Origin: a virus
Taxonomy: Duplodnaviria > Heunggongvirae > Uroviricota > Caudoviricetes
Direction: 5' to 3' (one strand)
Virus record (IMG/VR): IMGVR_UViG_2534682294_000023
Length of the DNA stretch: 47,011 nucleotides
Each line of letters begins with the position of its first letter. The first letter of the stretch is position 1. Under the pieces are notes generated by a model. It saw only the letters and a program-made list of their open reading frames with translations. It did no database searches and was not told where the DNA came from. Below are positions 42,897 through 43,850 of this stretch, in pieces. Position numbers and translations under genes: made by a program.

Positions 42897-43433
42897 ATGA
42901 TGCTTACCCTGGACGAGATAGGTCAATCAGTACGTAACAATATCCAGTTGATTATTGATCATGTCGGCTTACCTCTTGCTGTTGGTCCGCTCAGTGATGA
43001 TGATTACAAGATTCTGTGTGGTGGCTATGGTGAGCTTGAATGGGACTATGCGTTAAGTACCTATGGCAACTCCAGAGAAAAGTATGAGTTCTGCATAAAA
43101 CTTGTTCAGCAAGGTCGGGTTCAGGGAATACCATCAGGAGCAGCAATTTGTGTTTATGGGGTTGAAGAAAACATCTTTCGTATCCATATGATCGAAAGGT
43201 TTTCTAGAGAAGATGAATCTCACCCATTGAAAGGGCGCATGGTTTTACTCACTCTTATGAGTGCTTTTATATTTTGTAAAGCTGTTGAATGTAAAGTTGT
43301 CCACATTGTAGAGCCAGTACCAGAACTGGTGCAGTATTACGAGTCTTTTGGTTTCCGCATGGAACAGTGCGGTTATGTGATGTCGGCAGTCATTGATGAG
43401 CTGCAGGATATCTTTCTTAAATTTGCTCAGTAG
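42897..43433 (+). CDS. Hypothetical protein (178 aa), possibly GNAT-like fold
   Basis: First ORF inside the element edge; C-terminal ...ELVQYYESFGF resembles a GNAT motif-B ending, but no firm motif. Confidence 0.45.
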   Translation: MMLTLDEIGQSVRNNIQLIIDHVGLPLAVGPLSDDDYKILCGGYGELEWDYALSTYGNSREKYEFCIKLVQQGRVQGIPSGAAICVYGVEENIFRIHMIERFSREDESHPLKGRMVLLTLMSAFIFCKAVECKVVHIVEPVPELVQYYESFGFRMEQCGYVMSAVIDELQDIFLKFAQ

Positions 43434-43538
43434 GTATAGACGAGAAGGGTCTACAAATTGTAGGATACCCGTCCAGATTACCTTAAAGGTACATCTATGG
43501 CAGTCGTTTTGTGCTTAAACTACTAAGAAACGATGTCA

Positions 43539-43559
43539 CCAATCGACATGATCGATTGG
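43539..43559. promoter_or_regulatory. Perfect 8-bp inverted repeat (CCAATCGA-N5-TCGATTGG), candidate operator upstream of the 57-aa ORF
   Basis: Seen directly in the sequence, about 70 bp upstream of the ATG at 43630. Confidence 0.3.
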
Positions 43560-43629
43560 CATAAGTTAGCGAAACAAGCTAGCTTTAAAGAAAGGGTTAG
43601 AGACGCCTTTACTGTCTCGGGAGTTTTCT

Positions 43630-43803
43630 ATGAAAGATCAAAAAGCAACCAAGCCACAGGTTAAGTTCGACACAATGAAAGCATTCGCAGGTATGGGTGC
43701 TGCTGTTGAAGTTCTGATGAAGGCTGCTCCTAATGCGTTCACTCACGCTACTGTCTCTGGTAAAGAGCAGCAGGGTAAGCTTCGTCGTCGCAAAGCAGCA
43801 TGA
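43630..43803 (+). CDS. Small hypothetical protein (57 aa, Lys/Ala-rich, basic C-terminus)
   Basis: ATG at 43630 with GGGAG RBS; followed by a strong terminator; below the ORF-track cutoff, translated by hand. Confidence 0.4.
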   Translation: MKDQKATKPQVKFDTMKAFAGMGAAVEVLMKAAPNAFTHATVSGKEQQGKLRRRKAA

Positions 43804-43822
43804 TCATAGCTGGTGCTTTTTG

Positions 43823-43849
43823 AAAACCCGCCTTCAGGCGGGTTTTTTC
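43823..43849. terminator. Bidirectional rho-independent terminator between convergent genes
   Basis: aaaacccgcc ttcag ggcgggtttt hairpin flanked by A-run and T-run. Confidence 0.7.
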
Positions 43850-43850
43850 T

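Follow-up and report, generated by a model that had tools for sequence, protein, structure and literature searches.

The window analysed here, the whole stretch of 47,011 nt, carries at 42814–43853 a two-gene cassette that comparisons with other phages and genomes have shown to be self-contained and horizontally mobile (a 'moron'), located at the attL end of a mEp460-like, lambda-like (lambdoid) prophage that is integrated in dusA of E. coli. Its first gene (ORF178) encodes an acidic protein with a predicted GNAT fold and its second gene (ORF57) a small basic protein preceded by a structured leader RNA (Table 1). Judged from its sequence, the cassette is a credible candidate for a new toxin-antitoxin or defence module. 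Our preferred reading, to which we give a probability of about 40%, is that of an autonomous, toxin-antitoxin-like moron in which ORF57 restrains ORF178.

Table 1. Coordinates of the cassette, its parts and its neighbours in the window.
Feature	Position	Strand	Basis or remark
Host dusA 5' fragment, displaced, with attL	42643..42771	+	RefSeq pseudo-CDS 'tRNA-dihydrouridine synthase, missing C-terminus'
Exchangeable cargo segment: ORF178, its upstream region, ORF57 promoter-like boxes and leader	42814..43616	+	phage/genome comparison
-10-like box TATAAT, ~32 nt 5' of the ORF178 start; candidate ORF178 promoter	42862..42867	+	inferred
ORF178 (PHROG 4350); acyltransferase-like, acidic and divergent, predicted GNAT fold	42900..43433	+	177 aa; alternative ATG 42897
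Invariant promoter-like boxes TAGACG (43437-42) and TAGGAT (43461-66), 18 nt spacer; candidate ORF57 promoter	43437..43466	+	inferred
Structured 5' leader of ORF57, ~165 nt	43467..43629	+	covariance
Leader helix	43479-83/43487-91	+	covariance model R1, alignment A7
Leader variable hairpin	~43498-43538	+	covariance model R1, alignment A7
Leader helix, perfect 8-bp inverted repeat CCAATCGA / TCGATTGG, 5-nt loop	43539-46/43552-59	+	
Leader helix	43563-70/43578-85	+	covariance model R1, alignment A7
Leader helix, ends 1 nt before the Shine-Dalgarno GGAG (43620-23)	43600-04/43614-18	+	
ORF57, 57-aa basic Lys/Ala-rich protein, PHROG 2741	43630..43803	+	alignment, dN/dS
Intrinsic terminator closing the cassette, common tail-to-tail with the early-left operon	43822..43853	.	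hairpin + T run
PrtN-family excisionase, final gene of the early-left operon; neighbour, outside the cassette	43851..44159	-	PF11112 4e-23; phrog_1300 'excisionase' 8e-40

Boundaries, mobility and linkage of the pair

The displaced dusA fragment lies outside the cassette and marks the left prophage boundary, with a crossover near 42740–42750. Near-identity between the window and phage mEp460 starts at ~42746, and mEp460 itself bears a dusA-like copy whose protein is 76% identical. ORF178 and ORF57 are located ~150 bp inside attL, in agreement with a previous sequence-only reading of this DNA that had placed them at the inner edge of a dusA element. Homology to phage Lys8385Vzw ends at 42813 and restarts at 43617, and in ~200 E. 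coli genomes the megablast matches begin at 43617–43620; such comparisons define the exchangeable cargo segment. The excisionase gene is not found beside the ORF178-ORF57 pair in most other contexts.

The sequence-only reading had also proposed that such a boundary serves prophages as a slot for defence or toxin-antitoxin cargo, and the same position does hold other modules of this kind. In the sister phages at dusA, SKA5 and Lys8385Vzw, the ORF178 segment is replaced by PanA-PanT (1.2 kb; a Panacea-domain PanA and a 139-aa protein), which ~200 E. coli genomes likewise have between attP and ORF57. A Shewanella baltica prophage harbors TacA-TacT and a HEPN pair in the equivalent slot next to an orphan ORF57. 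Both replacements left ORF57 intact and join it immediately upstream of its Shine-Dalgarno sequence, and the orphan ORF57 occupies one kind of location in both lineages.

The two genes are tightly but asymmetrically linked. All 163 loci with an ORF178 homologue (39 distinct pairs) possess an ORF57 homologue 93–250 nt downstream on the same strand, so the co-occurrence that had been expected for the pair extends beyond this prophage with no exception. Including later contexts (~170 loci, 27–100% identity, at least six genomic settings), a small Lys-rich ORF lies 90–250 nt downstream of the ORF178 homologue in each; it is recognisable as an ORF57 homologue down to 39% ORF178 identity, and in a relative of 27% identity, located on a plasmid of Enterobacter kobei, a 57-aa Lys-rich ORF follows after 90 nt. 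The neighbour of a Proteus relative is an acidic 92-aa protein and not a small basic one. Exclusivity holds in one direction: ORF178 without ORF57 was found at none of the 163 ORF178 loci, whereas ORF57 occurs without ORF178 in two independent lineages (21 IMG/VR loci, ~200 E. coli genomes and S. baltica). This asymmetry, with a toxin never seen without its antitoxin and orphan antitoxins tolerated, is the generic pattern of type II toxin-antitoxin systems. P0140, in which a GNAT relative might be naturally fused to a tail resembling ORF57, did not reach significance in an HMM comparison.

The whole module is present in 357 of the 358 E. coli genomes with ORF178, and its genes are found in ~7–10% of complete E. 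coli genomes, including the O157:H7, O111 and O145 STEC lineages. The settings of the pair comprise dusA attL beside xis, the Q-holin slot, a site beside int in Morganella, a Photorhabdus contractile-tail cluster, a Pseudescherichia prophage edge and Shewanella, and the flanks share no homology across unrelated settings. The cassette is thus present or absent among similar phages (mEp460 versus SKA5 and Lys8385Vzw) and takes several genome positions, as morons do. The idea that ORF57 is phage backbone tied to the excisionase, with ORF178 as unrelated cargo, was dropped because ORF178 homologues away from xis/dusA all carry ORF57.

The two proteins and the RNA between them

ORF178 is a real gene under purifying selection. 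It had been taken as a 178-aa ORF from 42897; the ORF stands, and a start at the second ATG (42900), which yields 177 aa, is favoured by a GAGG Shine-Dalgarno sequence (42891–94), by the RefSeq annotation and by the homologue N-termini (MLTLDEIG). Neither gene is 'unannotated', as had been stated, since RefSeq lists both as hypothetical proteins (WP_000956557.1 for ORF178 and WP_000654815.1 for ORF57) and both fall into PHROG families that have no assigned function (E=2e-103 and E=8e-36 respectively). A match to known phage structural or regulatory proteins, which would have spoken against a new system, was found for neither ORF. At the level of sequence models the earlier view that no family can be assigned is maintained for both proteins: ORF178 and likewise 10 remote relatives have zero Pfam or NCBIfam matches at E<=1, an ORF178 HMM retrieved no acetyltransferase from the PDB sequences, ORF57 has no match among sequence models in Pfam, NCBIfam, PADLOC or the PDB sequences, and no component model of PADLOC-DB v2 matches ORF178, ORF57 or the excisionase at E<=1. 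At the level of the fold that view had to be revised for ORF178, which is confidently assignable to GNAT, the fold of acyl-CoA N-acyltransferases, from its predicted structure (pLDDT 93.7); the GNAT-like motif first suspected in it turned out to belong to a GNAT fold predicted for the whole protein.

The predicted topology (beta1-alpha1-alpha2-beta2-4-alpha3-beta5-alpha4-beta6) is the mixed alpha/beta fold expected of a GNAT. Motif B is found in alpha4 as Y147-Y148-x-S-F-G152-F153, where Y148, G152 and F153 are invariant; hhalign aligned Y148 to the Tyr of FYAKYGF in TacT, in a 15-residue, low-probability match. The motif A region consists of an invariant H109-P-L-x-G113-(R/K)-M115 behind a 13-residue loop; with respect to Q/R-x-x-G-x-G/A, the central Gly is kept, Met stands in place of the last G/A and the first position has neither Q nor R. 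H97 and E100 in strand beta-4 are also invariant in the family. The structural neighbours include TacT3, TacT2 and AtaT, with SpeG spermidine acetyltransferases among the top Foldseek matches, and those from viral structures and the PDB are generic GNATs that give no pointer to a substrate. The family is small (91 representatives at 50% identity among 1.84 billion; 51 clusters at 90% identity in a single-sequence search) and acidic, with a pI of 4.3–4.9 and a net charge of -8 to -18 in 38 of 38 homologues. ORF178 shows ordinary codon usage (CAI 0.29) and its synonymous sites are saturated. A -10-like hexamer (TACAAT, TATAAT, TAAAAT or TAAGAT) lies 30–45 nt 5' of the ORF178 homologue in all contexts inspected; the TATAAT of the window falls below the call of the consensus scan for lack of a good -35.

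The 57-aa ORF and its good ribosome-binding site were both upheld. The Shine-Dalgarno sequence is separated from the ATG by 6 nt, and dN/dS values of 0.05–0.20 against 11 orthologues indicate a real coding gene under purifying selection. Frame and length (53–58 aa) are preserved down to 29% identity; in the distant homologues (29–40% identity) the length and motifs of the protein persist, whereas the nucleotide sequence does not. The alignment (A2) shows a core motif, FDT-x7-G-x-A-[VI]-[ED]-x-L-x-K-A-A-P, and a tail, E-x-Q-G-K-x-R-x2-3-A-A. K31 is invariant, K50 nearly invariant and the N-terminus not conserved; the C-terminal AA is not universal (it is absent from P0088 and P0097). ORF57 has a pI of 10.5 and a net charge of +8 (family pI 9.4–10.8) and is codon-optimised, with a CAI of 0.56 compared to a window median of 0.29. 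Predicted alone by AF2, it reaches a pLDDT of 62, too low for a fold search, with short helices at residues 15–37 and disordered tails, and neither this model nor the Pfam search revealed a helix-turn-helix, RHH or other recognisable DNA-binding or regulator signature. ORF57 (87 clusters in a profile search) is better conserved than ORF178 in protein and DNA alike, and its synonymous sites are near-frozen over ~65 nt. A comparison aimed at relaxed selection counted ~2 synonymous and 3 nonsynonymous events in orphan ORF57 alleles versus 16 and 5 in linked alleles, a very small sample; anecdotally, a frameshift in ORF57 is accompanied by one in ORF178 in two contigs. A lack of TTA, CTA and TCA codons accounts for an antisense ORF that overlaps ORF57 and that 27 of 31 sequences keep open in frame -1.

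The two genes are separated by 196 nt in the window. The promoter-like boxes of ORF57 follow the ORF178 stop directly and appear as invariant columns in 13–16 sequences whose overall identity is 65%; they match 8 of 12 consensus positions, below the scan threshold, and comparable boxes are found in Photorhabdus, Xenorhabdus and the Q-holin type. The leader behind them was shown to be a conserved, covarying hairpin structure. Pairing under model R1 (alignment A7) extends to 93% of cells, compared to 23–45% in slid controls, there are 35 compensatory cells versus 13 in shuffles (0 of 500 shuffles had as many), many one-sided changes lead to G.U, a pair possible in plus-strand RNA only, and the folding z-score is -2.9. 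The perfect 8-bp inverted repeat noticed previously is present and forms one hairpin of this leader. Rfam gave no match at E<=1 within 43434–43629, and none in the corresponding leader of L184. The leaders of Photorhabdus, Shewanella and the Q-holin type escaped model R1; they are structured yet not alignable. The PanAT and Shewanella variants have lost the leader entirely and kept ORF57. An sRNA of E. coli K1, sRNA-17, has been reported from mEp460-like prophages (PMC7719688); identity with the ORF57 leader was ruled out, as the sRNA-17 sequence maps to another part of such phages (L004:7032-7052) and the window does not contain it. Downstream of ORF57, the strong terminator described earlier is confirmed for the plus strand (hairpin at 43822–47, 11-bp stem with 6 G-C pairs, T run). 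Its supposed bidirectionality is only plausible: the minus-strand tail has 4 T in 8, under the scan threshold, and the excisionase gene ends at 43851. An equivalent hairpin and T run lie 3' of ORF57 in most contexts inspected.

A toxin-antitoxin-like reading and its rivals

According to the preferred reading, the products of ORF178 and ORF57 would form a complex in which abundant ORF57 holds the acyltransferase in check, and the module would be a toxin-first, toxin-antitoxin-like or abortive-infection-type system expressed from the lysogen. Transcription from a weak promoter of its own would yield little ORF178 and would read through into ORF57; ORF57 would be synthesised in excess, supplied by both promoters and translated from a stabilised structured mRNA with optimal codons. 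If ORF57 is short-lived, a block of synthesis (phage takeover or loss of the element) would free ORF178, which might then acylate an amino group of a cationic target and cause growth arrest. An excess of ORF57 is suggested by the difference in CAI (0.56 compared to 0.29) and by the additional promoter-like boxes, and a short half-life by the disordered basic tails and by a C-terminus (...RRKAA) that we take to resemble ClpX tags.

This reading is supported by the linkage and its asymmetry, the alternation of the slot with toxin-antitoxin modules, the predicted GNAT fold with its invariant Y148, H97 and E100, the disorder of ORF57 on its own, the jointly frameshifted contigs (as an anecdote) and the complementary charges, which hold family-wide (pI 4.3–4.9 for ORF178 versus 9.4–10.8 for ORF57). 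Because ORF178 is acidic, the aminoacyl-tRNA of TacT and AtaT is an unlikely target. A bolder version, doubtful as a whole, sees an undescribed two-component conflict module in which a toxin-first acidic GNAT with a cationic non-tRNA target is paired with a codon-optimised, protease-labile 57-aa 'micro-antitoxin' whose synthesis would be governed by a promoter of its own and a multi-hairpin 5' leader RNA of a new kind; the module would hop among moron slots of temperate phages of Enterobacterales and Shewanella as an abortive-infection or addiction device.

Several observations go against the toxin-antitoxin-like reading. Known GNAT toxins are preceded by an RHH antitoxin in an abutting gene, whereas ORF57 follows ORF178 across a structured gap and shows no recognisable DNA-binding domain. 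The tRNA-acetylating toxins TacT and AtaT possess a basic tRNA-binding surface; by the proxy of whole-protein pI and charge, such a surface is not indicated in any of the 38 ORF178 homologues. ORF57 is conserved above ORF178, which is unusual for an antitoxin and suggests a separate, conserved target for ORF57, and its retention on two occasions after replacement of ORF178 suits an independent role as well as an orphan antitoxin. Additionally, ORF178 departs from the canonical motif A (HPLxG(R/K)M), the C-terminal AA does not occur throughout the family, PADLOC gave no match and the neighbour in Proteus is acidic.

The main rival, itself unlikely, is that of an enzyme-substrate or modifier pair, in which ORF57 would be the true effector, an abundant, small and basic protein directed at some conserved part of the host (for instance nucleic acid, the ribosome or a protease), and ORF178 a dedicated acetyltransferase of ORF57 (at its N-terminus or at K31/K50) or of the target of ORF57, tuning its activity. 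An acidic enzyme with a basic, Lys-rich partner throughout the family, the invariant K31 and nearly invariant K50, the better conservation and higher expression (by CAI) of ORF57 and its survival of ORF178 in two lineages are all consistent with such a pair. The two families are nevertheless similar in size and taxonomic spread (87 clusters for ORF57 versus 51 at 90% or 91 at 50% identity for ORF178), contrary to what is expected of an independently useful ORF57, the ORF57 N-terminus is unconserved and the orphans keep to one type of location in both lineages; moreover, we know of no precedent for a phage enzyme that serves only to modify a small protein of the same phage.

It is improbable that the cassette serves counter-defence or lysogenic conversion, ORF178 acetylating a host defence protein or small molecule, in the way that AcrVA5 acts on Cas12a or that acetyltransferases inactivate antibiotics and polyamines, and ORF57 having an accessory or regulatory part. 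The location in classic moron slots, among them Q-holin, the home of stx genes, the abundance of viral GNATs and the suitability of an acidic GNAT for cationic small molecules (in line with the SpeG matches) would agree with it, but ORF57 has no regulator signature and a codon optimisation atypical of a regulator, the constant company of ORF57 is left unexplained, and the slot alternates with toxin-antitoxin modules and not with anti-defence genes.

Quite improbable is an RNA-centred module, where regulation would lie with the RNA formed by the leader and the conserved ORF57 mRNA (for instance an RNA antitoxin against ORF178 or a dual-function sRNA) and the peptide would be secondary. It would account for the covarying hairpins with their G.U changes specific to plus-strand RNA and for synonymous sites that are near-frozen in ORF57 and saturated in ORF178, and such an RNA would be new, given the empty Rfam search. 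However, distant homologues (29–40% identity) retain the protein and not the nucleotides, the dN/dS of ORF57 is well below 1, its low dS is explicable by high CAI alone, and the PanAT and Shewanella variants lack the leader and have ORF57. The least probable reading is that two unrelated hypothetical genes co-travel in one recombination block with no functional coupling, for although ORF57 can exist without ORF178 and each gene has a promoter-like element of its own, adjacency, order, strand and spacing are conserved in at least six unrelated settings with non-homologous flanks, down to 39% (ORF178) and 29% (ORF57) identity.

Relation to known systems and significance

The cassette resembles TacA-TacT, AtaR-AtaT, KacA-KacT and ItaR-ItaT in combining a GNAT-fold protein of ~175 aa with a small partner on a mobile element, and the motif-B tyrosine is conserved. 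These GNAT/RHH type II systems harbor an RHH antitoxin (DUF1778/TacA) upstream, with the genes abutting, whereas the cassette has the att site upstream and ORF57 downstream, past a structured gap of 93–250 nt with its own boxes, and no RHH protein. ORF178 also differs from the GNAT/RHH toxins in being acidic, in its non-canonical motif A and in having no Pfam acetyltransferase match. PanA-PanT occupies the identical slot but comprises unrelated proteins with the antitoxin first; it is alternative cargo and not a homologue. The N-terminal acetyltransferases NatD/Naa40, Naa20, Ard1 and RimI are ~10–13% identical to ORF178, a likeness generic to the GNAT fold. AcrVA5 is a GNAT-fold anti-CRISPR that acetylates Cas12a in phage-host conflict and is not known to need an obligatory small partner; it is, like ORF178, a small phage-borne GNAT, and no link by sequence or context was found between the two. 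As a genetic unit the cassette is similar to the lambdoid morons (bor, lom and stx at Q-holin), being autonomous, with a terminator and promoter-like elements, a variable presence and several positions; unlike them, it comprises two genes, each with a promoter-like element, and a long structured leader.

If the cassette is a toxin-antitoxin or defence module, it would represent a new architecture for GNAT toxins, different in partner, gene order and probable target, and it would provide a function for two PHROG families labelled as unknown. In the same case, the attP-to-ORF57 slot of dusA phages would be an exchange hotspot for toxin-antitoxin and defence cargo. If, instead, the enzyme-substrate reading is true, this would be an unusual example of a phage that carries a small abundant effector together with its dedicated acetyltransferase. 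The leader of ORF57 would be a new structured cis-regulatory RNA.

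Gene calls and location of the pair

The module DNA is 100% identical to that of O157:H7, O111 and other STEC genomes, and the window is a piece of E. coli chromosome. Left of the prophage, host genes run lexA-dinF-yjbJ-zur-DUF2713 and are followed by a 5' fragment of dusA, after which lies a lambdoid prophage close to phage mEp460 (98.3% identity over 42646–44521). The free phage has the order tail fibre, dinI, integrase, attP (located within a dusA-like 5' mimic), ORF178 (the upstream gene of the pair), ORF57 (the downstream gene) and then, convergent with ORF57, a PrtN-family excisionase joined to the early-left operon. 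Integration parts the pair from the integrase and leaves it about 150 bp inside attL, at the inner edge of the dusA element where the sequence-only reading had placed it. The mEp460 homology has a break at which strain PV15-279 carries an ISEc8 (IS66-family) element instead; the Rv2179c-like 3'-5' exonuclease gene encodes 112 aa compared with 190 aa in mEp460, and the early-left operon has a mosaic make-up or has decayed in part. On the host side, the DUF2713 ORF (low CAI of 0.20) appears to be a fused or alternative form, since the same region is called as two genes (84 aa and 235 aa) in E. coli contig L194.

Both ORFs, their Shine-Dalgarno sequences, the 8-bp inverted repeat and the terminator, all previously claimed, were found in the sequence, but the description "unannotated" was wrong as RefSeq has both genes as hypothetical proteins. 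They match PHROG 4350 (ORF178, E=2e-103) and PHROG 2741 (ORF57, E=8e-36), two families of unknown function. ORF178 likely starts at the second ATG, giving 177 aa, because of Shine-Dalgarno spacing, RefSeq annotation and homologue N-termini. ORF57 is a genuine coding gene, with a dN/dS of 0.05–0.20 against 11 orthologues and with length, frame and motifs kept down to 29% identity (Shewanella).

Coordinates of the cassette and neighbouring features in the window
Feature	Position	Strand	Remark
DUF2713 ORF	41331-42287		318 aa, between zur and dusA
dusA 5' fragment	42643-42771		host side of prophage junction
Swap junctions	42813 and 43617		segment 42814-43616 replaced in E. coli dusA phages
ORF178	42900-43433	+	likely start; alternative ATG at 42897
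Leader	43467-43629		
8-bp inverted repeat	43539-46 / 43552-59		helix 2 of leader
ORF57	43630-43803	+	57 aa
Frameshifts of L194/L195	42912, 43126, 43640		ORF57 event in A-run 43636-40
Terminator	43822-47		3' of ORF57
Rv2179c-like exonuclease gene	44169-44507	-	
Break in mEp460 homology	44521-45533		

Linkage of the two genes and the cargo slot

Co-occurrence of the pair, one of the checks proposed with the sequence-only reading, was complete: behind every one of 163 ORF178 homologues (39 distinct pairs, drawn from 16 genome loci at species level, 80 contigs of viruses and additional loci), an ORF57 homologue lies 93–250 nt downstream on the same strand. The settings are unrelated and comprise the dusA attL adjoining xis (this window), the interval between antiterminator Q and holin (phage Eeyore and widespread prophages), a site adjoining the integrase (Morganella), a contractile-tail/baseplate cluster (Photorhabdus), a prophage edge (Pseudescherichia) and Shewanella. 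The flanks beyond the cassette have no homology in common across these settings and therefore hitchhiking is an unlikely cause of the linkage. ORF57 had at first been read as phage backbone since phages SKA5 and Lys8385Vzw keep it and have ORF178 swapped for two other genes; the linkage across unrelated settings overturned this.

A 27%-identical ORF178 relative on an Enterobacter kobei plasmid is followed, 90 nt downstream, by a 57-aa Lys-rich ORF not recognisably related in sequence to ORF57, and in a Proteus relative the neighbouring gene is another one, encoding an acidic protein of 92 aa. The 246-aa metagenomic relative P0140 carries a C-terminal tail (...AIKQMPNAPKGEAAGKR) that by eye looks like ORF57's ...LMKAAPNAF...QQGKLR, with a non-significant HMM score, and hints at a natural enzyme–partner fusion. 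Two contigs, L194 (GCA_028597995.1) and L195, have frameshifts in both genes (a one-base deletion in ORF57), which may reflect homopolymer sequencing error or joint inactivation. One prophage with the cassette between Q and holin also encodes an Acb2/Tad1-hairpin protein (anti-CBASS/Thoeris sponge family) downstream of its lysis genes (L186:6058-6351).

ORF57 DNA is present in 562 complete E. coli genomes and ORF178 in 358; ORF57 occurs without ORF178 in two independent lineages, the E. coli dusA phages and Shewanella baltica. In the former, the swapped segment holds a 190-aa Panacea-domain protein (PF13274, 2e-19) and a 139-aa protein, likely a PanA-PanT toxin-antitoxin, that abuts ORF57 with loss of its leader; the pair is found in Lys8385Vzw (L005:2973-3961), SKA5 (L004) and about 200 E. 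coli genomes. The S. baltica slot (L191:1610-3920) carries a canonical TacA-TacT and a 269-aa/HEPN pair upstream of the ORF57 homologue, and the equivalent slot of a sister prophage in S. frigidimarina (L027:7001-7866) an ORF178 homologue. The ORF57 homologues of these two species are 86% identical and their DNA homology starts 24 nt before the ATG. In both lineages homology picks up again 10–25 nt before the start codon of ORF57, and therefore the slot is a cargo position exchanging toxin-antitoxin-type modules, with ORF178 as one alternative and ORF57 as the constant right-hand element.

Fold of ORF178, structured leader and expression design

ORF178 has no match among Pfam, NCBIfam, PADLOC and PDB-sequence models, and its remote family members likewise find none in Pfam, so that no sequence model places it in the GNAT superfamily. 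The AlphaFold model (pLDDT 93.7, pTM 0.90; input alignment of 27 homologues) has GNAT acyltransferases as structural neighbours without exception: Foldseek against PDB gave a probability of 1.00 for Gcn5, SpeG, AtaT, TacT3 and RimI, and a viral structure library returned generic GNATs only. The motif proposed as possibly GNAT-like was thus right at the level of fold, where ORF178 is predicted to be a divergent, uncurated lineage of the superfamily. H97 and E100 in strand beta-4 are invariant, as is the motif-B tyrosine Y148 (YYxSFGF), which aligns with the tyrosine of bona fide TacT in a short and weak match; motif A is non-canonical (HPLxG(R/K)M, preceded by a loop of 13 residues). The family is small (91 representatives among 1.84 billion, E<=1e-3) and every member is acidic (pI 4.3–4.9).

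A -10-like box lies 30–45 nt upstream of ORF178 in every setting inspected, and the invariant boxes TAGACG-18 nt-TA(G/C)GAT stand directly 3' of its stop codon in alignments elsewhere just 65% identical; matching 8 of 12 consensus positions, under the scan threshold, these boxes upstream of ORF57 are candidate promoters only. The leader of about 165 nt between boxes and ORF57 has four alignable hairpins and a variable one, matching no Rfam family. When 25 sequences were aligned to a covariance model, 93% of the cells in pair columns were paired compared with 23–45% in slid controls, and 35 cells were compensatory where 13 were expected (0 of 500 shuffles reach 35); because the model guided this alignment, the counts are biased towards structure. 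One-sided changes often lead to G.U, which pairs only in + strand RNA and therefore argues against a DNA operator. Most settings inspected have a strong terminator 3' of ORF57. The ArcA-regulated sRNA-17 of E. coli K1 RS218, found in mEp460-like prophages (PMC7719688), was the sole literature lead, no paper on ORF178/ORF57 being found; it maps elsewhere, several kb from the cassette in the early region (L004:7032-7052 and 21 other loci), and its sequence is absent from the window prophage.

The two genes appear to be built for unlike expression levels. The CAI is 0.56 for ORF57, the highest of all window ORFs (0.52–0.61 in enterobacterial homologues), against 0.29 for ORF178; among window ORFs 150 aa or longer, the median is 0.29 and the highest value 0.42 (codon weights after Sharp and Li, absolute values being approximate). 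Its codon usage suggests that the ORF57 protein may be abundant. ORF57 is also an island of nucleotide conservation, at 84–98% identity versus 47–81% in adjoining DNA (ORF178 62–81%, leader 47–81%) and 13–40% beyond the terminator. The proportion of synonymous differences is 0.08–0.46 in ORF57 and 0.65–0.93 (saturated) in ORF178, and synonymous sites are almost frozen over about 65 nt in the FDT...KAAP core. This is most simply explained by strong selection on translation; an additional function of the RNA, or use as an anchor for recombination when cargo is swapped, may also play a part. The ORF57 family is basic (pI 9.4–10.8) and its C-terminus is usually ...(K/R)xAA; alone, ORF57 is predicted to form short central helices only, with disordered Lys/Arg tails.

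Possible function of the module

The reading we prefer, tentatively (probability about 0.4), is a toxin-first, toxin-antitoxin-like or abortive-infection module in which the two proteins would bind each other. It is favoured because the dependency is one-sided, because the slot otherwise holds toxin-antitoxin modules, one of them with a classical GNAT toxin, and because the expression design would put the partner in excess over the enzyme. Against it, ORF57 lies downstream and does not belong to the RHH proteins, ORF178 is acidic unlike tRNA-acetylating toxins, and ORF57 is conserved more than ORF178 and kept once ORF178 is lost. All of these points fit the main rival, in which the two would be an enzyme and its substrate or modifier; we regard this as rather unlikely. 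An anti-defence or conversion enzyme is less likely than that pair, and improbable; a function centred on RNA, such as the structured leader might serve, is more doubtful again; and the absence of any coupling, set against the unbroken linkage, is the least probable.

Returning to the toxin-antitoxin-like reading, the module falls outside the TacAT/AtaRT family: it lacks the upstream RHH antitoxin by which that family is defined, and the acidic charge of ORF178, taken as a proxy, speaks against a tRNA-binding surface. Its mode of action may still resemble theirs. The module matches no PADLOC defence model. Co-occurrence and anatomy are well supported, and the cassette is shown to be a mobile two-gene moron, probably autonomous, in which a divergent acidic protein with a predicted GNAT fold is obligately linked to a small basic protein whose gene has a structured leader.
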